From an uncultured Planctomycetales bacterium (GTDB lineage: Bacteria > Omnitrophota > Gorgyraeia > Zapsychrales > JANLHA01), in assembly GCA_964474085.1 (NCBI GenBank), contig CAYYRJ010000001.1:27631-91630 (forward strand): DNA of 64,000 nucleotides, given 5' to 3'. Of this stretch, positions 2,832 to 38,118 are shown in pieces. The position numbers and the translations under genes were made by a program. The notes below the pieces were generated by a model that was not told the DNA's origin, did not search any database, and was given only the letters and a program-made list of their open reading frames with translations. Numbering within the stretch: position 1 is the first letter of the stretch; each line of letters opens with the position of its first letter.

Positions 2832-3847
2832 CGGGAATCTCTTTAAAAGACAAATTGACCATTGTCGTCCCGACGTATAATCGTTATGATTATCTTGTCA
2901 GATGGCTTAGTTATTATCAGTTAAAAAGGTTTCCCTGCGCGATTAAGATTTTAGATTCAAGCGCCGATAAGACATATTCGAAACAGTTAGAGCAATTGTT
3001 AACTGACCCAAACGTCAGTTGCCAAAAATTTGATAGCTCAACTTTTTTTGTTCACAAAATTGCGCAGGGGTTAAAAAGTGTAGAGACGCCCTTTAGTGTC
3101 TTGTGTGCCGACGATGATTTTTTGGTCCCTTCTGGGTTAGAGCAGTGTGTTGAATTTTTGTCAAATCATTCGGATTTTTTATCGTGTCAGGGGCGCTCGA
3201 TTTTGCATCAGCTCAAAGAGGACAAATTTTTGTGGATGCCCAATGGACTAAATGCGCTCTCGGTAGACCAACAGACCCCGGCTAAACGCTTTGATTTTTT
3301 CTTCCCCGATAATTATTGTGGGTATCCCTTGTATGCTGTACATCGGACGGATCTCCATAAAGAAATTTGGGGCGCGGCTGATCATTGCGTTTCTGATTGG
3401 GGGTTATCGGAAATATTCCCTTCATCTTTAAGCGTTATTTTAGGCAAAATGAAAATTTTGGATTGTTTTTACTCTTCGAGAGAAACAAACACTTATAATT
3501 GGGTGGATGCAAAGGCTCATCAGCGGATGTATTCAACAGAAAAAGTTGATCAAGTGGTGACAAGTTTGGCAAAACGCATGGATTCTAATTTGGTCCGAGA
3601 AAAATTTAATAGATATTTTGAATTTTGTGAAACAAAAATATCTGCAAATTCTGATAAAATTAAAAACAAAAGCTATTTAAGAAGATCATTGGGAACACTA
3701 AAAGAATGTGTAATCCGTTGCTTTTGGCTTGCCAAGATTAATAATCCGTTTGAGTTCTTTCAAGAACTAAAAGATCTAAAATGCTCGATTTCCAAGTTTA
3801 AGATTGACGAAGAAACGCAAAGAAATTTTCGGGAGTCGTATCGATGA
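2828..3847 (+). CDS. glycosyltransferase-like protein (PTYNR / CADDDF motifs, resembles the TIGR04440 family found with N-acetyl sugar amidotransferases)
   Basis: N-terminal IVVPTYNR and a later CADDDF acidic motif. 339 aa. Start overlaps the upstream stop (ATGA). Confidence 0.55.
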   Translation: MTGISLKDKLTIVVPTYNRYDYLVRWLSYYQLKRFPCAIKILDSSADKTYSKQLEQLLTDPNVSCQKFDSSTFFVHKIAQGLKSVETPFSVLCADDDFLVPSGLEQCVEFLSNHSDFLSCQGRSILHQLKEDKFLWMPNGLNALSVDQQTPAKRFDFFFPDNYCGYPLYAVHRTDLHKEIWGAADHCVSDWGLSEIFPSSLSVILGKMKILDCFYSSRETNTYNWVDAKAHQRMYSTEKVDQVVTSLAKRMDSNLVREKFNRYFEFCETKISANSDKIKNKSYLRRSLGTLKECVIRCFWLAKINNPFEFFQELKDLKCSISKFKIDEETQRNFRESYR

Positions 3848-4911
3848 GTCAAAGTAAGAATGTCACGATATGCATTCCGACGAAGAACCGTTGCGATTTT
3901 TTAAAAAGAGCGATTGCCTATTACGCAAAGATTGGTTTTCAGGGACATATTTTTGTGGCGGATGCCAGTGATCCTCAAAAATTTCTGGAGAATAAAGAAA
4001 ATATCAAGCTTTACCAAAACGATGTCCAAATCGGGCATTTTTCTTGTGCGGGCAAAAGTATTCTGGAATCTGTCGACTGTGTGAATCAATTTTTGCAAAC
4101 TCCTTATGCAGCCGTGTGCTCGGATGATGACTTTCTTTGTTTAAAAGGATTGGAAGATGCCGTAAATTTTATGGACGAGCATCCGGATTATTCGGCGTGT
4201 CATGGGGTGGGTGCTATTTTTGGGTTGGACTCCAGCGGCGCGCATGGAAAAATCTGCGAAATTTTGCCGTATCCTCAAGCGAGCATAACGCAAGATACAG
4301 GCACGCTTCGCTTGGAAGAATATTTTCGGCAAGGACCACTGGCTTTAGTTTATTCTGTTTGCCGAAGCTCGCTTTGGAAACAAATGTGGCGGCAGTATCC
4401 TGATGCGAAAAGTTGTTTTATTTTTGATGAGCTTATTCCGTCGAGCTTTTGTGCTATTGCAGGAAAAATCGGTGAAGTGGATTCATTATATCTTGTCCGG
4501 CAAATGCATGAGGGGATTTATTCGCAGCCTGCGTTTTTGCAATGGGTCATGCATCCATTGTGGCAGGGTAATTTTAAAGAATTGCGTGAAAGGGTTGTCG
4601 GTCAACTGATCGAGGTAGATCATATTTCTCATCAGCAAGCTGAACAGAATTTTGACAAAATTTTTCAGGATTATTTTATAAAATTGTTTAAAGTTTTTAT
4701 CGAAAAAGGGGAAAATACGAAGTCCCAAGGGAACACTTTGAAAGATGTCATTAAAAAATCGTCGCCATTGATGAGCAAATTTTATTTTTTACTTAAAAAG
4801 TATAGTTCTTTTTATTTTCGTCAGGAAATCGGGTTAAAAATGTTAAAAGCAGATTCAAAGTATTTTGACGATTTTGATCCCATAGTCAAAACTATCACGC
4901 AAACCAATTGA
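3844..4911 (+). CDS. glycosyltransferase-like protein, paralogue of the preceding gene
   Basis: ICIPTKNR and CSDDDF motifs at the same positions as in 2828-3847. ATGA overlap with the upstream gene. Confidence 0.55.
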   Translation: MSQSKNVTICIPTKNRCDFLKRAIAYYAKIGFQGHIFVADASDPQKFLENKENIKLYQNDVQIGHFSCAGKSILESVDCVNQFLQTPYAAVCSDDDFLCLKGLEDAVNFMDEHPDYSACHGVGAIFGLDSSGAHGKICEILPYPQASITQDTGTLRLEEYFRQGPLALVYSVCRSSLWKQMWRQYPDAKSCFIFDELIPSSFCAIAGKIGEVDSLYLVRQMHEGIYSQPAFLQWVMHPLWQGNFKELRERVVGQLIEVDHISHQQAEQNFDKIFQDYFIKLFKVFIEKGENTKSQGNTLKDVIKKSSPLMSKFYFLLKKYSSFYFRQEIGLKMLKADSKYFDDFDPIVKTITQTN

Positions 4912-4926
4912 AAATAGGACGAAATT

Positions 4927-5901
4927 GTGAAGAAAATTTTGATCACAGGCGCAGCAGGTTTTGTTGGGTCTCATTTGACGGAAGTTTTGGTAAAAAAGGG
5001 CCTCGATGTCAAAGCTTTGGTGCGCTACAATTCGCAAAATAAGTGGGGTTGGTTAGAGGAAACCCAAGTCAAAAAGGATATTGAAATTGTCAGCGGCGAT
5101 GTTCGCGATTACGATAGTGTGTCCAAGGCGCTTAAAGGATGCGAAGCGGTGTTTCATTTGGCTGCGCTCATTGGGATTCCGTATTCCTATATTTCGCCTT
5201 TAGCATATATCAAAACGAATGTTGAGGGGACGTATAATATTTTAGAAGCTGCCAGAGAACAAAAACTTCAACAGGTTCTGATTACCTCGACGAGTGAAAC
5301 GTATGGCAGCGCGCAATCGATTCCTATTAGTGAAGAACATCCATTAGTTGCTCAATCGCCTTATGCGGCCAGCAAAATCGCTGCTGATCAATTGGCTTTA
5401 AGCTACTATCGATCTTTTGGTTTGCCGGTTAAAGTCGTTCGGCCTTTTAACACGTTTGGCCCCCGGCAATCGGCGCGCGCGATTATTCCAACGATTATTA
5501 CTCAGATTTTATCCGGCCAACTAAAAATCCAATTGGGTAATCTTTCTCCGACGAGAGATTTTACGTTTGTGACTGACACGGCAGAGGCATTTTGGGCGAT
5601 TTATCAGTCGAAAAAAAGTATCGGGCAGGTCGTTAATATCGGGTCTGGCCAGGAGATTTCGATTGAAGCGTTAGCCAAACAGATCGCAGGACTGGCAAAT
5701 AAAAATATCGAAATTGTTCCACACAAAGAGAGAATACGAGTTAAAACCAGCGAAGTCGAGCGTTTATGCGCGGATAACACAAAATTAAAGAAAATGACAG
5801 CATGGAAACCGCAGTTTGATTTAAAGAGAGGACTTAAAGAAACAATCCGTTGGTTTGAAACCCGCATGAATTTATATAAACCCGAGGTTTACAATGTCTA
5901 A
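4927..5901 (+). CDS. NAD-dependent epimerase/dehydratase (UDP-sugar 4-epimerase / 4,6-dehydratase family)
   Basis: ILITGAAGFVGSHL Rossmann motif, and YAASK catalytic motif. GTG start at 4927. Confidence 0.8.
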   Translation: MKKILITGAAGFVGSHLTEVLVKKGLDVKALVRYNSQNKWGWLEETQVKKDIEIVSGDVRDYDSVSKALKGCEAVFHLAALIGIPYSYISPLAYIKTNVEGTYNILEAAREQKLQQVLITSTSETYGSAQSIPISEEHPLVAQSPYAASKIAADQLALSYYRSFGLPVKVVRPFNTFGPRQSARAIIPTIITQILSGQLKIQLGNLSPTRDFTFVTDTAEAFWAIYQSKKSIGQVVNIGSGQEISIEALAKQIAGLANKNIEIVPHKERIRVKTSEVERLCADNTKLKKMTAWKPQFDLKRGLKETIRWFETRMNLYKPEVYNV

Positions 5902-6874
5902 GCGGATTTTAATCGTCGGATGCGGGCAGATCGGTAGCCGTCATTTGCAGGCGGTCAGTGGCATGCAAGAAGTCGCCAGCATCGACGTTGTTGATTGCAA
6001 TGACAGTTCGCTTAAGTTAGGACAAAAACGCTTAAGCGAGGTTGTCGGTAAAAATCCGGCGATCACTTATCATTGGCTTGAAGGCTTGGAAAGTTCTTTA
6101 AAAGGCGCTGATCTTTGCATTGTGGCCACATCCGCTTTGGGACGCACAAAACTTGTTCGGGAAATTTTTGACCTGACGGGGATAAAACACTTTATTATTG
6201 AAAAATTAGCGGCACAGTCGACTGAAGAATATCAAGAGCTTTTGGATTTTTCCCGTCGGAATCATTTGAATATTTGGGTCAATTGTCCGACGAGATCCTA
6301 CGCTGTGCATCAATATATCAAATCCCAAATAGATCCGCGTGAGCCTCTTGTTTTTAGTCAAATTGGCGGCAACTTTGGCCTTGCTTGCAACGGTATTCAT
6401 TATGCGGATTTGTTTTTGTTTTATGATCAAACAAATGACATCCATTCTGTAAGTACCACAATAGACGCTGTCCTTCATCCGTCTAAGCGAGGCAAGGACT
6501 TTTTTGATTTAAGCGGCGTTTTGACAGGGTGTACGTCTAAGGGCAGTAAATTTATTCTTGCCTATGCTCCAGATCATACGATGGCTGATGTTGTAACGAT
6601 TTTTACTAAACGCGCAAGGTTTATGGTGGACATTATTAACGGCTGGGCGCAAGAAAGTATCGACGGTAAACCTTGGCAGAAAATTCCGATTGAGAGCAAA
6701 ATCAACGTGAGCGATACGACACAAATTTTTTGTGGGGATATCTTTCTTCATAATTCTTGTGCCTTACCGACTCTGCAGGAATGTTGGCCAGCGCACCGTT
6801 TTATTTTGACAGAAACATTGCCGCATTTTAACCGTTTATTAAAAACCCAGAATCAATTTTGTCCGGCGACGTAA
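5894..6874 (+). CDS. Gfo/Idh/MocA-like oxidoreductase
   Basis: N-terminal ILIVGCGQIGSRHL dinucleotide-binding motif. 326 aa. Confidence 0.55.
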   Translation: MSKRILIVGCGQIGSRHLQAVSGMQEVASIDVVDCNDSSLKLGQKRLSEVVGKNPAITYHWLEGLESSLKGADLCIVATSALGRTKLVREIFDLTGIKHFIIEKLAAQSTEEYQELLDFSRRNHLNIWVNCPTRSYAVHQYIKSQIDPREPLVFSQIGGNFGLACNGIHYADLFLFYDQTNDIHSVSTTIDAVLHPSKRGKDFFDLSGVLTGCTSKGSKFILAYAPDHTMADVVTIFTKRARFMVDIINGWAQESIDGKPWQKIPIESKINVSDTTQIFCGDIFLHNSCALPTLQECWPAHRFILTETLPHFNRLLKTQNQFCPAT

Positions 6875-6878
6875 AGCA

Positions 6879-7841
6879 ATGACTGCTAAGAAAATAAAGA
6901 TAGCTTTGGTGGGGGCAGGGTGGGTAGCCAGAGAGCATTTAAAAGTCCTTAAGTCATTGCCACAGGTCAGTGTTGTTGGTATCACATCGCGGACATTGGC
7001 AAAAGCCCAAAGCTTGGCCGACGAATTTGGTATTTGCGGTGTGTTTAAAGACCTTCCAACTTTGGTTCGAGAAAGTCAACCGGACGCATTGCTTATTTTA
7101 GTCAGCCAAGATCAAATGTTTGAAGTTGCAACTGCTGCAATGAAGTTTGGTTTACCGTTATTTATAGAAAAACCGGCTGGGTTAAACCCGCAACAAAATT
7201 TGAAGCTTGCCCGAGAGGCCAAAAGAAGAAAAGTCCGGACGATGGTTGGATTTAATCGGCGGTATTATTCGATTTTTCATAAAGGGTTTAAGATTATCCG
7301 TCAGCATGGGGAGCTTTTGGGCGTTTTTGTCGAAGGCCATGAACGGATGTGGCGCGTTCGAGATGCGAAAAAATTTTCTAAAAAAGTTTTGGACCAATGG
7401 ATTTATGCTAACAGCACACATACGATTGACCTGTTACGGTTTTTGGGTGGTCAGATAAAATCTGTTAAATCTATTTCGAAACGTTCTTTTGGCGAAGCCC
7501 GTGGCGATCAATTTGCGGCCCTCATTGAGTTTAAATCAGGTGCTTTAGGGCAGTATCAGGCATATTGGTACTCGCCCGGCGGATGGCGTGTGGTTTTGTA
7601 TGGCAACGGGGTTACGGTCGAATTTAAACCGTTAGAAAATGGCGTGTGGCTGGACAAAAATTTTGTACAGCATCCGATTAAACCCGACGCCGTTGACAAA
7701 AAATTTAAACAAGGTTTTTATCATCAGATGATAGCATTTTTGAAAATGGTCCGTGGCGAAAAATCAACGTGGCCTTCGACGGATTTGGAAGACAGTTATC
7801 AAACGATGCTTTTGGCCGAAAAAATCTCACAAGGCCGTTAA
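6879..7841 (+). CDS. Gfo/Idh/MocA family oxidoreductase
   Basis: IALVGAGWVAREHL N-terminal Rossmann motif, and EKP motif (LFIEKPAG). Confidence 0.75.
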   Translation: MTAKKIKIALVGAGWVAREHLKVLKSLPQVSVVGITSRTLAKAQSLADEFGICGVFKDLPTLVRESQPDALLILVSQDQMFEVATAAMKFGLPLFIEKPAGLNPQQNLKLAREAKRRKVRTMVGFNRRYYSIFHKGFKIIRQHGELLGVFVEGHERMWRVRDAKKFSKKVLDQWIYANSTHTIDLLRFLGGQIKSVKSISKRSFGEARGDQFAALIEFKSGALGQYQAYWYSPGGWRVVLYGNGVTVEFKPLENGVWLDKNFVQHPIKPDAVDKKFKQGFYHQMIAFLKMVRGEKSTWPSTDLEDSYQTMLLAEKISQGR

Positions 7842-7856
7842 AGGTAAAATAAACAC

Positions 7857-8507
7857 ATGTCCCAAAAGAAAATTTTGATAATCGGCGGCGGTGGTCATGC
7901 AAAATCTTTGATCAGCGTCATCAAGAAGTCCAAGATTTTTAAAATTATTGGTTATGTGGATATCCAAGACCATGGCCGGATTTTAGGAATTCCTTATTTG
8001 GGGACAGATCAAGACTTAAAAAGAATCGCAAAAAGATTTCGGTGCTTTTTGGCTGCTTTGGGTATCGGGACAACAGCGCTTTCTCATAAGCGTCGTCAAA
8101 TAGTTGAAGAATTGACCGCTTTGGGCTTTCAGTGGCCAGCGATTGTTTCTCCGACGGCGATTATCAATGAAGAAGTGGTTTTAGGGCAGGGGACTGTTGT
8201 TTTTGACGGTGCAATTATTAATGCGGGGACATCTGCAGGACAAGGGTGTATTTTTAATACGGGCTGTATTGTCGATCATGATTGTGCCATAGGCGACTTT
8301 GTGCATATTGCGCCCGGGGCAGTTTTAAGCGGTGGGGTTGTGGTTGGCGATAATTGTTTGCTGGGCACTGGTGTCAAGGTTATCCAATGCGTATCGATTG
8401 CCCGCGATTGTTTGATAGGTGCTGGCGCTGTCGTCGTCAAAGATATCAAAAAAGCTGGGACGTATGTTGGGGTTCCCGCTTGCCTCAAAAAGGATTGTCG
8501 TGCATGA
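7857..8507 (+). CDS. neuD: NeuD/PglD-family sugar O/N-acetyltransferase (left-handed beta-helix)
   Basis: N-terminal ILIIGGGGHAKSL Rossmann-like motif. C-terminal hexapeptide repeats. Confidence 0.8.
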   Translation: MSQKKILIIGGGGHAKSLISVIKKSKIFKIIGYVDIQDHGRILGIPYLGTDQDLKRIAKRFRCFLAALGIGTTALSHKRRQIVEELTALGFQWPAIVSPTAIINEEVVLGQGTVVFDGAIINAGTSAGQGCIFNTGCIVDHDCAIGDFVHIAPGAVLSGGVVVGDNCLLGTGVKVIQCVSIARDCLIGAGAVVVKDIKKAGTYVGVPACLKKDCRA

Positions 8508-9520
8508 AGCGGTTAAAGACTTTTATTATTGCCGAAGCCGGAGTCAATCATAATGGAAAACTTGCCTTAGCCAAACAGTTGATTAAGGCAGCCAAAAGCG
8601 CTGGTGCAGATGCGGTTAAGTTTCAAACTTTTAACGCAGAGCGTCTGGTGACGGCAACAGCCAGCAAAGCGACTTATCAGAAAAAACTGACTTTGCCCAG
8701 TGAAACACAGCTGGCGATGCTAAAAAAATTGGAACTTAGTCGGAGTGATCATAAACAGTTGCTTGCCTGCTGTCGGGAAAATAAAATTTTATTTTTATCA
8801 ACAGCGTTTGATGAGCAAAGCGCGGATTTATTAGATGCGCTGGGCATGAAGATTTTTAAAATTCCCTCGGGTGAAATAACAAATCTCGAATTTCTTAAAT
8901 ATATTGCTCAAAAGGGCAAGCCGATGATTTTGTCAACGGGGATGTCGACGTTAAAGGAAGTTGAGCTTGCGGTCAAAAGTATTTTTTCAGCAGGCAATAA
9001 GCGCCTGACCCTTTTGCATTGTGTCAGTGATTATCCGGCAGCCTTCGATCAGCTTAATTTAAAAGCAATCGAAACTTTGCAAAAAACTTTTCGTTTGCCG
9101 GTCGGGTTTTCGGACCATAGTCTGGGGATTTTAATGGCTCCTGTCGCAGTTGCGTTGGGGGCGGTGGTTATTGAAAAGCATTTGACGGTGGATCAGACTT
9201 TGCCCGGGCCGGATCATCAGGCTTCAGTAAAGCTGCAAGAATTTAAGATGATGGTCGAAAATATACGCCTGGTTGAAAGCGCATTAGGAAACGGGAACAA
9301 AGTACCGGCCTTGTGTGAAGATGATTGCCGAAAGATAGCCCGTAGAAGTTTGACCGCTGTTTGCGACATAGCCAAGGGAGAAAAATTGTTGAGTTCTGAT
9401 ATTGTTCTCAAGCGTCCGGGGACAGGAATTTTTCCAGCGGACTTAAAGAAAGTCGTCGGGCGGCAGGTTTTAAAAAACATCACAAAAGACGAGACATTGA
9501 CATGGGCCAAAATAAAATAA
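8504..9520 (+). CDS. neuB: nonulosonic acid synthase (NeuB/LegI/PseI family)
   Basis: FIIAEAGVNHNG...AKSAGADAVKFQTF N-terminus typical of NeuB-family aldolases. C-terminal SAF/antifreeze-like domain. Start at ATG 8504 overlapping the upstream stop (ATGA). The ORF track start, 8354, is upstream of the conserved N-terminus. Confidence 0.9.
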   Translation: MKRLKTFIIAEAGVNHNGKLALAKQLIKAAKSAGADAVKFQTFNAERLVTATASKATYQKKLTLPSETQLAMLKKLELSRSDHKQLLACCRENKILFLSTAFDEQSADLLDALGMKIFKIPSGEITNLEFLKYIAQKGKPMILSTGMSTLKEVELAVKSIFSAGNKRLTLLHCVSDYPAAFDQLNLKAIETLQKTFRLPVGFSDHSLGILMAPVAVALGAVVIEKHLTVDQTLPGPDHQASVKLQEFKMMVENIRLVESALGNGNKVPALCEDDCRKIARRSLTAVCDIAKGEKLLSSDIVLKRPGTGIFPADLKKVVGRQVLKNITKDETLTWAKIK

Positions 9521-10761
9521 ACCCGGATTTTGCATTTCCCTTTTTGTGCGCGACCGATCGTCGCGCAATAGGTTGTAATGCAAAGTTTGGGATAAGAAAA
9601 ATTTGTGTGGTCAGCGGTTCTCGGGCAGATTATGGCCATTTGCAAAGCTTGATGCGTGCGTGCGCGCTAGATTCGTCCATTGACCTGCAAATGATTGTGA
9701 CAGGGTCGCATCTTGCCAAAGAGCAAGGGCAAACGTATCGGCAGATACAAAAAGATGGTTTTAAAATTCATGCTAAAGTCAACATATCAAAATTTGATGA
9801 TTCCGCCGTTGGCATCACAAAACGCATCGGGTTAGCTTGCCATGGCTTTGGAGATGCGTTTGCGCGTTTAAGTCCGGATATTGTTGTTGTCTTTGGTGAT
9901 CGCTACGAGATTTTAGCGGCGACGATTGCCGCTTATGTGGGAAAGCTTATCATCGCTCATTTGCACGGCGGAGAATTATCAGAAGGAGCGCTCGATGAGG
10001 GGTTTCGTCACGCGATAACAAAAATGGCGCACGTTCACTTTGCCGCCACAGAGAATTATCGTCGACGCATTGTCCAATTAGGCGAGCAGCCTAAGAATGT
10101 TTTTAATTTTGGAGCGCCGGGCTTGGATGCGCTGCGGAGTATGAAGTTGTTATCGAAGGACGCTTTGTCGTCGGAACTAAAATTTGATTTAAAGGGGCGC
10201 TGTGCCATTGTCACGTTTCATCCCGAAACCTTGGATCGCGGCTTATCGCGAAAGCAATTGGATGGGATTTTAACCGCCATCGGAGCGTTTGATTTAAAGG
10301 TCATTTTTACTAAAGCCAATATGGATCCACAAGCCCTGCAGATTAATAAAGCGCTTGCAGAGTTTTGTAAAAAAAATCCTCTGCGCTATCGGCTCGTCGA
10401 TAATCTTGGGGTGCAAAAATATTGGAGTTGTTTGGCTAGTTTTGATCTTATGATTGGAAACTCTTCCAGCGGGATTATTGAAGCCCCGTCTTTTAGGTTG
10501 CCGGTTATTAACGTCGGGGATCGGCAAAAGGGGCGCATTCGATCTTGCAATATTATTGATGTGCCGATAAAAACTTTCGATATTCGCAAGGCCATTGCCA
10601 AAGCTCTTTCTAAGTCTTTTAAAAAATCGTTGATAGCAATGAAAAATCCATATCAGCGTTTTGACGACGGGAAAAGTGGCTGGCGGATTAAAGAGCAATT
10701 AAAACGCGTGGAGATTGATGGAGATATTTTAAAGAAAAAATTTTTTGATAGGGCAAGGTAA
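9502..10761 (+). CDS. neuC: UDP-N-acetylglucosamine 2-epimerase, hydrolysing type (NeuC/LegG family)
   Basis: KICVVSGSRADYG...HLHGGE motifs of NeuC-type epimerases. Start is uncertain. ATG 9502 would translate the 70-bp palindromic element as a 33-aa leader. GTG 9607 would remove the first beta-strand. Confidence 0.75.
   Translation: MGQNKINPDFAFPFLCATDRRAIGCNAKFGIRKICVVSGSRADYGHLQSLMRACALDSSIDLQMIVTGSHLAKEQGQTYRQIQKDGFKIHAKVNISKFDDSAVGITKRIGLACHGFGDAFARLSPDIVVVFGDRYEILAATIAAYVGKLIIAHLHGGELSEGALDEGFRHAITKMAHVHFAATENYRRRIVQLGEQPKNVFNFGAPGLDALRSMKLLSKDALSSELKFDLKGRCAIVTFHPETLDRGLSRKQLDGILTAIGAFDLKVIFTKANMDPQALQINKALAEFCKKNPLRYRLVDNLGVQKYWSCLASFDLMIGNSSSGIIEAPSFRLPVINVGDRQKGRIRSCNIIDVPIKTFDIRKAIAKALSKSFKKSLIAMKNPYQRFDDGKSGWRIKEQLKRVEIDGDILKKKFFDRAR
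9527..9596. repeat. ~70-bp extended palindromic element, copy 1 (second copy at 38048-38118)
   Basis: Outer arms TTTGCATT / AATGCAAA. Inner 8-bp stem TGCGCGAC-CGATC-GTCGCGCA. About 90% identical to copy 2 and ends about 10 bp before an in-frame GTG. Confidence 0.6.
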
Positions 10762-10767
10762 ATTCAT

Positions 10768-11829
10768 ATGCAAAAAGAAGTTAAAGACTTTTTAATTGAC
10801 CGTCACGAGTCGATCAAGCAGGCGATGGAACGTTTAAGCAAAGTCGGCTCTAAGCAGCTTTTTGTGGTTGACGAAAAGACAACGATCCTTGGAGCTTTAA
10901 GCGATGGCGACATCCGCAAGTGGGTTCTTACGGGCGGTTCTCTTCGGCAAAAGGTGATTAAAATTTGTAACAAAAAACCGATCACTGTAAATAAAAATTA
11001 TTCTATTGAGTTTGTTCGCCAGACGATGCTCAAATTTGAAATACAAGCGATTGCGGTTGTCAATGCCAAAAATCTTGTCAGCGATGTTCTTACGTGGGAA
11101 CAGGTTTTTGCCGGCAAAGTGCATGCGCGCAAAGAACATTTGGATGCTTCGGTTGTGATCATGGCCGGCGGCAAGGGCACGCGGCTGGATCCTTTTACGC
11201 GTATTTTGCCCAAAGCATTGATTCCTATCGACGGGAAACCTGTCATTGAAGTTATTATGGATAAATTCAATGAATATGGCACAAAGGATTTTTATATTAC
11301 TCTTAACCATAAAGCGCGGATGATCAAGTCGTATTTTGAGGAGATGAATCAAAAATATCAGATCACGTATATCCAAGAAGATAAGCCACTGGGGACAGCC
11401 GGCAGCCTTAAGGCATTGGAAAAAAAGCTCAAAGGGCCATTTTTGGTAACCAATTGCGACGTCATTATCGACAGCGACTATACGGATATGGTCCATTTTC
11501 ACAAGACAAATAAACATGATCTGACGGTTGTCGTTTCCTGCCGGCATTATGTGATTCCTTACGGGGTCTGCGAAATCGAAGGACGCGGTTTACTTAAAGG
11601 GATTACAGAAAAGCCCGGATATGATCTTCTGGTCAATACCGGAATGTATGTCATGAACAATCGAATTTTAACTTTTATTCCTCGAGAGAAGTTTTTTAAC
11701 ATGACGGATCTGATAAGTGTCGCGAAAAAGAAGAATTTCAAAATCGGGGTTTATCCTGTCAATGAAAAGTCATGGATGGATATTGGGCAATGGGAAGAAT
11801 ATAACCGGACATTAAAAATTCTTCATTAG
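10768..11829 (+). CDS. CBS-domain sugar-phosphate nucleotidyltransferase (PtmE-like)
   Basis: N-terminal tandem CBS region, then MAGGKGTRLDPFTRILPKALIPIDGKPVIE nucleotidyltransferase signature. Confidence 0.8.
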   Translation: MQKEVKDFLIDRHESIKQAMERLSKVGSKQLFVVDEKTTILGALSDGDIRKWVLTGGSLRQKVIKICNKKPITVNKNYSIEFVRQTMLKFEIQAIAVVNAKNLVSDVLTWEQVFAGKVHARKEHLDASVVIMAGGKGTRLDPFTRILPKALIPIDGKPVIEVIMDKFNEYGTKDFYITLNHKARMIKSYFEEMNQKYQITYIQEDKPLGTAGSLKALEKKLKGPFLVTNCDVIIDSDYTDMVHFHKTNKHDLTVVVSCRHYVIPYGVCEIEGRGLLKGITEKPGYDLLVNTGMYVMNNRILTFIPREKFFNMTDLISVAKKKNFKIGVYPVNEKSWMDIGQWEEYNRTLKILH

Positions 11830-11845
11830 ATAGCAAAGGTTATTG

Positions 11846-12757
11846 ATGCCTGTGATGCGTTTGATCGCGCGGCTGGATATTAAGGGGCCGAATCTCGTTA
11901 AAGGAGTTCATTTAGAAGGATTGCGCGTTTTAGGCAAGCCTGAGTCCTTTGCCGGTAAGTATTTTAAGCAAGGGATTGATGAAATTATTTATATTGATAC
12001 GGTAGCCAGCCTTTACGGACGCGATAATCTTTTGGGTATTGTTAAGCGTTCGGCCGAAAATATTTTTGTCCCGTTAACAGCGGGAGGCGGAATTCGTAGC
12101 GTCGAGGATATCCGTAATCTTTTACGGGCTGGAGCAGATAAAGTCGCGATCAACACGGCTGCTGTTTATAATCCAAAGTTTATTTTGGAGTCTTCGAGAA
12201 TGTTTGGTTCACAATGTATTGTTGTTTCTATTTGTGCCAAACAAACTAATAAGGACCAGTACGAGGCTTGGACAGATAATGCCCGGGAGCGATCAGGAAA
12301 AAATGTTTTTGACTGGGCAAGGGAAGCAGTGGATTTGGGGGCGGGAGAACTTTTGATTACCAGTATAGACCAGGAAGGAACCGCAAAAGGGTATGATATT
12401 GATTTGGTGCGGCGTATTGCCGACCAAGTACCAGTCCCCGTCATTGCCAGTGGCGGTGCAGGAAATGCCCAGCATTGTCTTGAAGTTATTGAACAAGGCC
12501 ATGCGGACGCGGTTTGTGCGGCGTCTCTTTTTCACTATTGTCAGTTAAAAGAACTACAATCGCAGGAACAATATCAAGAGGAAGGCAATGTGGAATTTAT
12601 CAAAAACAGTCGTGATACGTTGGGCTTTTTAAAAACCCGTCTTAATCCGATGAGTATTCCCGACTTGAAAACATATTTACAAAATCATGGTGTCACTTGT
12701 CGTATGGTCGAATGGTTGAAAGACGATCAAAATTCGTCGTCAGCGTGTGTTGATTAA
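11846..12757 (+). CDS. hisF: imidazole glycerol phosphate synthase cyclase subunit homologue (HisF-like, WbuZ-type)
   Basis: HisF-fold motifs (RLIARLDIKG, LTAGGGIRS, ASGGAG). ATG 11846 with AAAGG 5 nt upstream. Sits next to a HisH-like gene and an amidotransferase. Confidence 0.85.
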   Translation: MPVMRLIARLDIKGPNLVKGVHLEGLRVLGKPESFAGKYFKQGIDEIIYIDTVASLYGRDNLLGIVKRSAENIFVPLTAGGGIRSVEDIRNLLRAGADKVAINTAAVYNPKFILESSRMFGSQCIVVSICAKQTNKDQYEAWTDNARERSGKNVFDWAREAVDLGAGELLITSIDQEGTAKGYDIDLVRRIADQVPVPVIASGGAGNAQHCLEVIEQGHADAVCAASLFHYCQLKELQSQEQYQEEGNVEFIKNSRDTLGFLKTRLNPMSIPDLKTYLQNHGVTCRMVEWLKDDQNSSSACVD

Positions 12758-12765
12758 GGAATTTT

Positions 12766-13428
12766 ATGGATGCTTGCATCATTGATTATGGCTTGGGAAA
12801 CCTTTTTAATTTGCAAAAGGCCGCCCGTTTTTTAGGAGTCAAGGTTGAAGTTTCAAGCGATCCTAATAAAGTAAGAACTGCTAACAAATTAATTTTGCCC
12901 GGCGTAGGCGCGTTTGAGGATGGCATGAATAATTTGAAAAAGGCGGGTCTAGATATTGCGATCAAAGATTTTATTCAGACCGGAAAACCTTTTTTAGGGA
13001 TTTGTTTAGGGATGCAACTTTTAATGCAAGAGAGTGAAGAAAATGGTGTCTTTGAGGGGCTTGGCATCATTCCCGGGAGGGTTGTGCGTTTGCAAGAATC
13101 AGGGACACAGAAGATGTGCGTGAAAATTCCTCATGTCGGATGGAATAAAATTTTGTATCCCCAAGCGAAAAATGGACAGCCAAGAATTTGGGACGACACT
13201 ATTTTAAAAAATTTAAAAGAAGGCAGTTATTTTTATTTTGTTCATTCGTATCAGGTCATCCCTGACGATAAATCTGTCATATTGTCTGAAACGATATATG
13301 CAGATAACCGATTCTGTTCCGTTCTAAAATCAAAGAATGTGTATGCCTGCCAATTTCATCCGGAGATGAGTGCGGGGGATGGACTTAAGGGGATTGATAA
13401 TTTCTTTAAATTGCAAGGGAATGGATAA
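12766..13428 (+). CDS. hisH: class-I glutamine amidotransferase, HisH-like (WbuY-type)
   Basis: GICLGMQLL catalytic Cys motif. HVGWN and C-terminal FHPE motifs. Confidence 0.85.
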   Translation: MDACIIDYGLGNLFNLQKAARFLGVKVEVSSDPNKVRTANKLILPGVGAFEDGMNNLKKAGLDIAIKDFIQTGKPFLGICLGMQLLMQESEENGVFEGLGIIPGRVVRLQESGTQKMCVKIPHVGWNKILYPQAKNGQPRIWDDTILKNLKEGSYFYFVHSYQVIPDDKSVILSETIYADNRFCSVLKSKNVYACQFHPEMSAGDGLKGIDNFFKLQGNG

Positions 13429-13433
13429 ATCAT

Positions 13434-14654
13434 ATGCTTTTTCCTAATAAAACAATGGATCGCCAGTTGGCCAAGAGTCCTGCGAAGGTATTCTTTTGCA
13501 AAAAATGTGTTGTTTCCAATCAACGGCCCCGGATTACTTTTAATGAACAGGGGATTTGTAGTGCCTGTCAATATGCGCATCAAAAGCACAACGTCATTGA
13601 TTGGGAAGTCAGAGAAAAGATGTTTTTAGATCTTTTAGATCGGTATCGATCAAAAGACGGCAGTTATGATTGCGTGGTCCCCGGAAGCGGCGGCAAAGAC
13701 AGCAGTTATGTCGCTCATCAATTAAAATATAAGTATGGTATGCACCCATTAACCGTGACGTGGGCGCCGTTTATATATACGGATGTCGGTTGGAAGAATT
13801 ATGTTGAATTCAAGGATCATGGTTTTGATAATTTGCTCTGTTTTCCAGACGGGATTATTCACCGTAAACTAGCCAGGCTAGCGTTTGAATTATTGGGGGA
13901 TGCGTGGGAACCTTTTGCATACGGCCAGAAAGCTTACGCCTTTCATATTGCCTGCAAGTTTAAGATTCCTCTTATTTTTTATGGGGAAAGCGGGGAAGTC
14001 GAATACGGCGGTTCCACAAAAAATATTAATACTCCGCACGAAACGATCCAGGATTGGAAGGAATTTTATTATAAGGGATCCGGCATTGATGAGCTTGTGG
14101 AACATGGGCGTCAGGCAGGAATTTTTACGCCAGAGGATTTTAAGGATAATTCTTTTATGTTTTATCGGCCTCCTTCGCCCAAAGAGCTTCAAGAGGTCAA
14201 TCCGCAAATGCATTGGTTCTCGTATTATAAAAAGTGGGTGCCTCAAGAAAATTATTATTATGCGGTTGAACATACGGGCTTTGTGGCTAATTCTGATGGA
14301 CGCTCTGAGGGGACATACTCTAAATATGCTAGTTTGGACGATAAAACCGACGGATTTCATTTTTATTTAGCTTTCATTAAGTTTGGCATCGCACGGGCTA
14401 CCTCCGACGCGGCGCATGAAATCCGTGACGGCCATTTAACCCGGGAAGAGGGGATGGCATTGGTTAAACGTTATGACGGGGAATTTCCAAAGAAATATTA
14501 TAAGGAATTCTTGGAGTATTTGGGAATTGAAGATAAAGATTTTTGGGAGATTGTCGATTTTTATCGTTCTATGGTTCCTCACATCTGGACGAAGGTAAAC
14601 GGAGAGTGGAAATTATGCCACACTGTAAATAAAACTGGAGTGCATGACTGCTAA
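13434..14654 (+). CDS. N-acetyl sugar amidotransferase (PP-loop ATP pyrophosphatase, WbuX/PseA/LfnA family)
   Basis: N-terminal Cys cluster (CKKCVVSNQRP...CSAC), PP-loop SGGKDSSY. 406 aa. Confidence 0.8.
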   Translation: MLFPNKTMDRQLAKSPAKVFFCKKCVVSNQRPRITFNEQGICSACQYAHQKHNVIDWEVREKMFLDLLDRYRSKDGSYDCVVPGSGGKDSSYVAHQLKYKYGMHPLTVTWAPFIYTDVGWKNYVEFKDHGFDNLLCFPDGIIHRKLARLAFELLGDAWEPFAYGQKAYAFHIACKFKIPLIFYGESGEVEYGGSTKNINTPHETIQDWKEFYYKGSGIDELVEHGRQAGIFTPEDFKDNSFMFYRPPSPKELQEVNPQMHWFSYYKKWVPQENYYYAVEHTGFVANSDGRSEGTYSKYASLDDKTDGFHFYLAFIKFGIARATSDAAHEIRDGHLTREEGMALVKRYDGEFPKKYYKEFLEYLGIEDKDFWEIVDFYRSMVPHIWTKVNGEWKLCHTVNKTGVHDC

Positions 14655-36776: not shown

Positions 36777-37901
36777 ATGACAAAAACAAAGATCCTGATC
36801 TGTGGAACGCTCCCGCCGCCGAATTTTGGGCACAGCATGCTTTATAAAGCGCTGATGGAATCCCGTTTTGCCCAAGAGTTTGATATTGTTTTTTTTAACA
36901 TAAAATTTTGGTCGTATGAACAGCACCATAAGGTTACAGCCGCAAAACTTTTTAAATTCGTCCAATATTATTTTCAATTTATCACGTTAATACTTACGAA
37001 ACGGCCGCAGTATGTTTTGTATGCGATCAGTTTTGACAAGATGCCGTTTTTGAAGGATTTTGTTTTTTGCATGACCGCAGAGATTTTGGGTTGTAAAGTT
37101 GTTTTGCATGATATGGGCCAGTATGTGCGTGAGCTTTATGATTCCTCGTCGATGTTTTTCCGCAGCCTGATGCGTTTTATGCTTAAAAGAATGACAGCAA
37201 GCCTTGTCCTAGGGGAATTGACGCGTAAAGTTTACGAGGGGCTTATGCCGAGCGATCGCGTTTATGCGATCCCTGCGGCGACCGCGGATTCTGCAAATTC
37301 TATTTTTCCAGTTGAAGATCGATGGCCCGGCGAAAAAATCAGGGTGCTCTTTTTTTCGTTTTTGCAAAAGTCCAAAGGCATTTGGGTCGCGCTGGAAGCG
37401 ATGCCAAAGGTCATTGCCCAAAATCCCAATGTTTATTTTACTTTTGCCGGCCCCGCCGAGTCGCAGGAGTTTGTTAGGCAAATGAATGATTTTATTGTCC
37501 GCAATCACCTAGAAAAGCATTTTGAATATGTTGGTTATGTCGGTGATGAAGAAAAACGAAGTGAATATTTTCGCAACTGTGATATCTATATCTTCCCGAC
37601 GCTGCGCGATGTTTTTGGGTTAGTCCTTTTGCATGCGATGGCAGAAGGCCGTCCGGTCATCGCTTCTTATGAGGGTGCAATCCCTGAAATTGTCGACGAT
37701 GGCCAAACAGGTTTTCTTTTCCAAAAATCCGATGCTGCGGCTTTGGCAGAAAAAATATTGCTTCTTGCACGCGACCGCCAAGCTCGTGCTATGATGGGCA
37801 AAAATGGGCGGATCAAATATGAGCGGCTTTATACGCTGGATGCGTATGCACAGCGGATGATTGATTTTTTTTCGTCTTTAGATAAACTTAGTAGATATTA
37901 A
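36777..37901 (+). CDS. family 4 (GT-B) glycosyltransferase
   Basis: C-terminal EX7E region (FPTLRDVFGLVLLHAMAEGRPVIASYEGAIPEIVDDGQTGFLF). ATG 36777. The track start, 36747, is TTG. Confidence 0.75.
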   Translation: MTKTKILICGTLPPPNFGHSMLYKALMESRFAQEFDIVFFNIKFWSYEQHHKVTAAKLFKFVQYYFQFITLILTKRPQYVLYAISFDKMPFLKDFVFCMTAEILGCKVVLHDMGQYVRELYDSSSMFFRSLMRFMLKRMTASLVLGELTRKVYEGLMPSDRVYAIPAATADSANSIFPVEDRWPGEKIRVLFFSFLQKSKGIWVALEAMPKVIAQNPNVYFTFAGPAESQEFVRQMNDFIVRNHLEKHFEYVGYVGDEEKRSEYFRNCDIYIFPTLRDVFGLVLLHAMAEGRPVIASYEGAIPEIVDDGQTGFLFQKSDAAALAEKILLLARDRQARAMMGKNGRIKYERLYTLDAYAQRMIDFFSSLDKLSRY

Positions 37902-38040
37902 CCCGGCTTTTGCATTAGCCTCGCTCCTGCGAGGCCAAGCAAAAGCCGCCCAAAGGGCCGCATGTCTCGACACCGTCGAGACGTGCGGGGTTAATCCTTG
38001 CGGTAAACCGCGACCACAGGGAGTCCCTGTGGGACAACCG
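37902..38040 (+). other. GC-rich multi-hairpin intergenic region (candidate structured RNA or protein-binding region)
   Basis: Nested stems GGCTTTTGC[GCCTCGC-TCCT-GCGAGGC]GCAAAAGCC, CCGCA[GTCTCGAC-ACC-GTCGAGAC]GTGCGG, GCGG-TAAA-CCGC and CCACAGGGA-GT-CCCTGTGG. No U-tract follows. Local GC is far above the surrounding sequence. Confidence 0.3.
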
Positions 38041-38047
38041 AAGGCAA

Positions 38048-38118
38048 ATTTTGCATTTCCTTTTTTGTGCGCGACGGATCGTCGCGCACTGGGTTGTAAT
38101 GCAAAATTTGGGATTAAG
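38048..38118. repeat. ~70-bp extended palindromic element, copy 2
   Basis: About 90% identical to 9527-9596. Ends 8 bp before the GTG start of the WecG/TagA-family gene, and is non-coding here (in-frame TAA inside it). Confidence 0.6.

Follow-up and report, generated by a model that had tools for sequence, protein, structure and literature searches.

Organization of the neuB–neuC Junction

We analysed a 64,000-nt stretch of DNA (hereafter the window; contig CAYYRJ010000001.1, positions 27,631 to 91,630 of the forward strand) from an uncultured bacterium deposited under a Planctomycetales label. The present report concerns a small palindromic element that lies in the window between neuB and neuC, two genes of a putative nonulosonic-acid-type sugar pathway. 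A sequence-only reading of the same DNA had described a 70-bp palindrome between the neuB stop at 9520 and the first strand of NeuC, had noted a second copy elsewhere in the window and had considered the start codon of neuC ambiguous. The palindrome is indeed present, between the neuB stop and the RKICVVSGSRADYG codons of neuC; its length, however, is 72 nt, to which a 3-bp duplication is added. The features of the junction, all on the forward strand, are the following, where MITE stands for miniature inverted-repeat transposable element.

8504..9520, forward: neuB, sialic/legionaminic-acid-type synthase, 338 aa (Pfam NeuB and SAF)
9502..10761, forward: neuC/legG-type hydrolysing 2-epimerase, 419 aa (putative; the open reading frame from ATG 9502 reads through the element)
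9518..9520, forward: left target-site duplication TAA, identical with the neuB stop (filled/empty alignment A1, flank table)
9521..9592, forward: short-form MITE, 72 nt, in the neuC frame N-PDFAFPFLCATDRRAIGCNAKFG-I (alignments, copy comparison, fold)
9521..9536, forward: left terminal inverted repeat, 16 nt, ACCCGGATTTTGCATT (at the left end of 13/13 copies)
9547..9567, forward: central G+C-rich hairpin TGCGCGAC-CGATC-GTCGCGCA (fold; conserved in all copies)
9577..9592, forward: right terminal inverted repeat, 16 nt, AATGCAAAGTTTGGGA (copy comparison, fold)
9593..9595, forward: right target-site duplication TAA, in the neuC frame part of ATA-AGA
9595..9615, forward: codons for RKICVVS, the first Rossmann beta-strand, residues 32-38 (AlphaFold model)

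NeuB scores 439 bits against TIGR03569 (cut-off 399.65), and its gene ends with the TAA at 9518-9520. The longest neuB open reading frame (ORF) opens at TTG 8354, overlapping the gene for a NeuD/PglD-like acetyltransferase (7857-8507), and the lengths of orthologous gene calls (338-342 aa) indicate that the real start is probably ATG 8504, which overlaps the acetyltransferase stop by 4 nt. The ORF that runs from ATG 9502 to 10761 translates as MGQNKINPDFAFPFLCATDRRAIGCNAKFGIRKICVVSGSRADYG..., and its first codon sits 19 nt before the neuB stop, inside neuB. Further downstream in the neuC frame we located ATT 9601 and GTG 9607, as previously listed, whereas the in-frame TTG had been misplaced: position 9553 is ACC, and the TTG is found at 9544.

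The short element folds into a hairpin of -36.2 kcal/mol (z = -6.3) on the sense strand, compared with -27.9 kcal/mol on the other strand, and its right repeat pairs with the left one via G-U pairs on the forward strand. Duplication of the TAA preserves the neuB stop and leaves the C-terminus of NeuB unchanged. At the right junction the neuC frame reads ATA, so that no start codon is recreated there.

Filled and Empty Sites in Relatives

A protein search returned one protein identical to the window NeuC (P0001, 419 aa), a 98% identical one of 396 aa that begins MVKNNITKRKICVV and is devoid of the element (P0002), and an 87% identical one of 458 aa with a still longer leader (P0003). Relatives that are 67-77% identical begin MGKNKIRKICIV, MGKNKLKKRKICVV or MTKRKICIV. 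Aligned with the orthologues that begin MGKNKIRKICIV and MGKNKLKKRKICVV, the window protein reads MGQNKIN[...]IRKICVV. A leader of 33 residues had been counted from ATG 9502; the ORF from this codon was confirmed, but the insertion accounts for 25 residues, while some 7-12 (MGKNKxxRK) belong to the native leader.

We then compared the window with the loci of four relatives (P0003 = L001, P0006 = L004, P0007 = L006, P0004 = L008). L004, L006 and L008 are element-free at the junction, where they read ATGGGCAAAAATAAAATAAGAAAAATTTGT or close variants of it. In DNA alignment A1 the empty site, ATGGGCAAAAATAAAATAA/GAAAAATTTGT, is matched in the window by ATGGGCCAAAATAAAATAA[ACCCGG...TTTGGGATAA]GAAAAATTTGT, i.e., by a 75-nt insertion with TAA at each end, which places 25 codons after codon 6 of neuC. 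In L001, as in the window, the element follows the TAA and TAA recurs at its far end; the L001 site holds a 189-nt form in the same orientation and in frame (192 nt, 64 codons). Had all orthologues carried a similar N-terminal extension, the segment would have been plain coding sequence according to the sequence-only reading. The outcome of this comparison is mixed and favours insertion, since most orthologues have no extension and P0003 has a longer element at the same site. The CAYNSM assembly contains the element at L028 and L061 with its neuC site (L004) empty, which is the pattern that mobility predicts.

When the 117 nt between the direct repeats of the L001 copy are removed, 69 of its 72 nucleotides are identical to those of the window copy. 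Both copies also carry AATAG after the core, a variant private to them, and over its first 200 nt the downstream neuC is 95% identical between the two loci. The simplest history would be one ancestral long-form insertion, followed by deletion in the window lineage. Between the window and L001 the synonymous divergence across neuC is 0.27, and the ratio of nonsynonymous to synonymous substitution rates (dN/dS) is 0.24 for neuC and 0.11 for neuB. The neuC gene has remained under purifying selection.

The Element Family

Thirteen copies were collected (from the window, L001, L035, L044, L052, L061, L062, L082, L098, L118 and L125), a number that is a lower bound. They fall into a short class of 72-73 nt and a long class of 188-213 nt, neither of which has room for a transposase. 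All copies open with ACCCGGATTTTGCATT and close with its near-complement, (A/T)CCCAAATTTTGCATT. Identical 3-bp flanks were found in 12 of the 13 copies (TAA in seven, TTA in three and TGA in two), and as the two flanks change together from site to site, they represent a target-site duplication and not element sequence. The usual form of 189 nt comprises four to five hairpins with compensatory changes in 9 pairs and folds equally well on both strands. The 72-73-nt form (the neuC copy and L062) is without all of the sequence between two direct ATTTTGCATT repeats, and the 72-nt form would thus derive from the 189-nt form by deletion between these repeats. Judged by its sequence features, the element fits the definition of a MITE, being small, bounded by terminal inverted repeats and a target-site duplication, and dispersed in many copies with both filled and empty sites.

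The second copy in the window is the longest form collected:

37901..38113 (37898..38116 with duplications), forward: long-form MITE, 213 nt (copy alignment, flank table)

TTA duplications border it at 37898-37900 and 38114-38116. Upstream lies the stop codon of a GT4 glycosyltransferase gene, and a WecG/TagA-family gene follows with its Shine-Dalgarno sequence and GTG 38127. The stretch that matches the neuC copy, 38048-38114, forms only the right-hand part of this long form; the identity is 93% over 67 nt (no such match is expected by chance). The sequence-only reading held that one extra C in the neuC copy keeps the neuC frame open. The two window copies nevertheless align without a gap, TTTCCCTTTTTG against TTTCCTTTTTTG, so that the difference is a C-to-T substitution (TTTCCC versus TTTCCT) and not an indel, and copy 2 is stop-free in the same phase. 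At 213 nt copy 2 exceeds the modal long form (189 nt) and contains the third hairpin in its two variants, arranged in tandem (CGGTAAACCG... and ...GTCCCTGTGGGAC). The stop of the upstream glycosyltransferase gene (37899-37901) is made up of two bases of the duplication and the first base of the element.

A scan of genome contigs with the G+C-rich core GCGCGACNGATCGTCGCGC yielded mostly chance matches in high-GC genomes; the true copies among the matches listed came from the window's own genome and at least three other metagenome-assembled genome (MAG) assemblies. Of these three assemblies, two are labelled "uncultured Planctomycetales" and one "Candidatus Omnitrophota". The named homologues of the NeuC and GT39 proteins of the carrier MAGs belong to Candidatus Omnitrophota/Omnitrophica, and the Planctomycetales label of two carrier MAGs may be wrong. 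An invariant 22-mer taken from the long form gave no match in the JGI metagenomes, and the element matched neither terminator nor promoter consensus sequences. An 18-mer from the right end, TGTAATGCAAAATTTGGG, was tried as a family probe and discarded, as its matches belonged to another, unrelated repeat. This 18-mer occurs on at least 120 JGI contigs (L126-L245; e.g., Ga0209149 and Ga0209339) in a highly repeated unit ending ...TGTGTTTCGAGCAAAAAACTACTATTTGTAATGCAAAATTTGGGGATTTGGGGGATAAT.

Open Frame and Copies in Other Genes

In 8 of the 13 copies the length plus 3 is divisible by three, and all eight are stop-free in the neuC phase, whereas the other two forward phases contain stops in most copies. 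As the stop-free set includes clearly intergenic copies, the open frame is intrinsic to the element and was not selected at neuC. That the frame is open in two genomes was also considered as an indication of selection at neuC and rejected on the same ground, since intergenic copies of equal length are open too.

All but one of the 13 copies run in the direction of the nearest upstream ORF, five adjoin its stop codon, and in several copies the next gene begins 13-28 nt past the element. The element thus tends to insert at stop-codon-like triplets at operon junctions, and its presence in neuC results only from the overlap of that gene with neuB. Either selection at the RNA level or a constraint on insertion could account for the orientation bias. 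Two further copies are informative:

L098, 551-2344: GT39-family membrane protein, 597 aa; element at 1428-1616, a 189-nt long form in frame
L052, 3263-3919, minus strand: DUF192 lipoprotein; element at approximately 3727-3915, inserted at the TGA of an ATGA overlap

In L098 the element contributes the same peptide of 64 residues in the middle of the protein, after ...NLYFVF, and P0121 (533 aa, approximately 95% identical to L098 outside the insert) is without exactly those 64 residues. In L052 the target was the ATGA stop/start overlap between the genes for an M48 peptidase and a DUF192 lipoprotein. The last A of the element and the duplicated TG rebuild the native ATG directly before the signal peptide, leaving two in-frame ATGs 65 codons apart, and on this arrangement the start codon of the lipoprotein gene appears genuinely ambiguous.

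The NeuC Protein

NeuC has the hallmarks of a hydrolysing 2-epimerase: it scores 433.9 bits against TIGR03568 (cut-off 235.9; residues 32-387 covering model positions 1-355) and contains the full Epimerase_2 domain (PF02350, positions 3-347 of 347). Its best match among solved structures is a GDP/UDP-diacetylbacillosamine 2-epimerase. The LegG-type structure 5zlr matches with E = 2.4e-84, and its residue 2 aligns with residue 32 of NeuC. Both the NCBIfam NeuC model and 5zlr therefore start at NeuC residue 32. In an AlphaFold model built on 37 homologues, residues 1-28 have a predicted local distance difference test (pLDDT) score below 50, the first strand spans residues 32-38, and the fold is otherwise intact (mean pLDDT 84.7). 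R32 and C35 are conserved in at least 90% of the 37 homologues, and a start at GTG 9607 would cost both of them among four of the seven residues of strand 1.

Probable Translation of neuC through the Element

The neuC calls of L004 and L006 both begin at an ATG that precedes the neuB stop by 19 nt, and in L004 no other ATG, GTG or TTG occurs from that ATG to the first beta-strand. Given this identical geometry and the lack of any alternative in L004, ATG 9502 is the ancestral neuC start, and the claim of an ambiguous start codon is not supported. It is also the only canonical start that keeps strand 1 whole. Since the upstream ATG is already in use in element-free relatives, the rare start codon (ATT or TTG) suggested earlier becomes unnecessary.

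We consider it likely, with a probability of roughly 0.8, that a MITE inserted in frame and that translation of neuC begins at the ancestral ATG 9502 and continues across the element. The insertion with its boundaries and duplication, the empty sites, the orthology of the ATG and the intrinsic openness of the frame are established. The suggestion of a mobile palindrome inserted in frame at the 5′ end of the gene is supported by the empty orthologous sites, the duplications and the intergenic copies elsewhere. A non-autonomous MITE inserted into the TAA that ends neuB and duplicated this 3-bp TNA target. With neuC starting 19 nt upstream of that stop, the target lay between codons 6 and 7 of neuC, and as the 75 nt of element and duplication are stop-free in the neuC phase, ribosomes starting at ATG 9502 would read through them. 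The product would be an epimerase of the NeuC/LegG type in which a disordered N-terminal tail ahead of the RKICVVS strand holds 25 additional residues. Its predicted N-terminus is MGQNKINPDFAFPF... (MGQNKINPDF...), and we infer that this extended NeuC would be both made and active.

Several observations weigh against this reading. P0002, the closest relative of the window NeuC, is without the element and has the leader MVKNNITKRK, which suggests either a polymorphic site or recombination at the neuB–neuC junction. This allele does not sit easily with the simplest history given above; one old insertion with later allele replacement, or two separate insertions, would account for it. The six extra nucleotides of P0002 are probably not an excision footprint, as they bear no likeness to the element ends and a leader of equal length is found in a distant relative without the element. 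By inspection of the sequence, no strong Shine-Dalgarno motif precedes ATG 9502, and the -36 kcal/mol hairpin, which starts 20 nt past this ATG, could lower expression. The stretch ACATGGGC is also constrained as the C-terminal Thr-Trp-Ala of NeuB, so its conservation by itself does not prove use of the start. An autonomous partner, sought by way of unpaired terminal repeats in the window and the related loci, was not found. Finally, translation from ATG 9502 through the element, and with it production of the extended protein, is an inference.

The most serious rival is that the neuC start has moved downstream, to ATA 9592, ATT 9601, GTG 9607 or TTG 9544, the 9502 frame being open by accident. 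The L052 junction, where a native ATG is rebuilt and the signal peptide argues for use of the downstream start, offers a precedent; moreover, openness that is intrinsic to the element is by itself no evidence of use, and a GGGA is found 9-13 nt ahead of ATT 9601. The right junction at neuC, however, provides ATA in place of ATG, both ATT and ATA are very rare as start codons, GTG 9607 would remove conserved parts of strand 1, and the element-free relatives already start at the upstream ATG. A moved start is therefore unlikely.

Somewhat less probable again is that the insertion has crippled neuC, which would then be poorly expressed or a recently formed pseudogene whose frame has not yet decayed. 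A strong hairpin near the start codon fits such an outcome, as does the existence of a 98% identical allele without the element, in view of which the insertion could be young and polymorphic. Against this, the 419-codon ORF is intact, the Epimerase_2 domain is complete, the surrounding pathway is intact throughout, and dN/dS is 0.24 in the comparison with the relative that has an element with the same private variant at the same site. Lastly, we regard it as very improbable that the segment is ordinary lineage-specific coding sequence or a non-transposable repeat of the repetitive extragenic palindromic (REP) or small-RNA type. Its strong structure with compensatory changes speaks for such a reading, and the co-orientation of 12 of 13 copies with the upstream ORF would suit an RNA-level element, but copies also occupy intergenic spacers, the flanking triplets covary as target-site duplications do, precise empty sites exist, and no Rfam match at the gathering score was found anywhere in the window.

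Comparison with Known Elements

In-frame palindromic insertions have been documented for Rickettsia palindromic elements (RPEs), QMITE1 of Coxiella, ERIC, BOX and MITEs of Anabaena (PMC10969869). RPEs are short palindromic repeats found in frame in unrelated genes; they bring their own open frame, and the host gains a peptide (PMC10969869). The neuC and GT39-gene copies are likewise in frame with an intrinsic ORF. In contrast to RPEs, the present family has clear terminal inverted repeats, a 3-bp duplication and mostly intergenic copies at gene ends, and its host is an Omnitrophota-like MAG; because this host is unrelated we do not classify the element as an RPE, the comparison being one of behaviour and not of sequence.

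The 3-bp TNA duplication (TAA, TTA, TGA) and the short terminal repeats recall Tourist-like MITEs and the PIF-Harbinger and IS5 groups. Within IS5, the IS1031 group, as classified in ISfinder, uses TNA targets. Canonical Harbinger elements, which are relatives of the IS5 family, duplicate 3 bp (PMC12730594). Unlike these groups, the present family came with no transposase bearing its ends in the window and related loci; the duplication, taken by itself, points to an IS5 or PIF-Harbinger-type enzyme as a candidate mobiliser.

The Correia elements of Neisseria and the ERIC elements are small, co-transcribed inverted-repeat elements at operon junctions, with long and internally deleted short forms, and they duplicate TA. 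The duplication of the present family, in contrast, is 3 bp and includes TGA, and the sequences are unrelated. Intragenic copies of ERIC are on record (PMC10969869). QMITE1 of Coxiella burnetii differs in host and sequence, and its sister QMITE2 has direct repeats of 7-9 bp (PMC10969869), compared with a duplication of 3 bp here. Stacked hairpins at gene ends and an orientation bias are also seen in REP elements and bacterial interspersed mosaic elements (BIMEs). REPs are not known to have target-site duplications and are linked to REP-associated tyrosine transposases (RAYTs), whereas the present family does have duplications. Altogether, the element behaves like the known in-frame palindromic insertions, a likeness of behaviour and not a demonstration of kinship to any of them. 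The literature searched contained no paper linking MITEs with Omnitrophota.

For annotation, the 419-aa neuC call from ATG 9502 is the sensible one and settles the start, with the 25 extra residues regarded as transposon-derived and not as a native domain. Comparable events have already been described in other bacteria, and the present one reveals no new mechanism; it adds a little-studied candidate phylum to Rickettsia, Coxiella, Anabaena and the enterobacteria as hosts in which palindromic MITEs survive in coding sequence. It also illustrates a rule, i.e., that where genes overlap, an element that targets stop-like triplets enters the next gene.

It is tempting to speculate that the family is adapted to living at and inside genes in Omnitrophota-like bacteria, although we hold this to be doubtful. 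Its TNA targets are often stop codons, nearly all copies (12/13) are co-oriented with the upstream gene, the modal length and the duplication add up to a multiple of three, and one phase per orientation is stop-free. Were the idea correct, the family would be either an RPE-like element that invades proteins and is able to donate peptide segments or a hairpin module recruited at operon junctions for mRNA stability or regulation, and in the latter case no neutral passenger.

The Surrounding Gene Set

The region 5894-14654 of the window encodes two GFO/IDH/MocA oxidoreductases, the PglD-like acetyltransferase, NeuB, NeuC, a CBS-nucleotidyltransferase and HisF/HisH-like proteins. L001 has in addition a DegT aminotransferase, a dehydratase and a CMP-transferase. 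The gene set resembles a pathway for a nonulosonic acid of the legionaminic-acid type.

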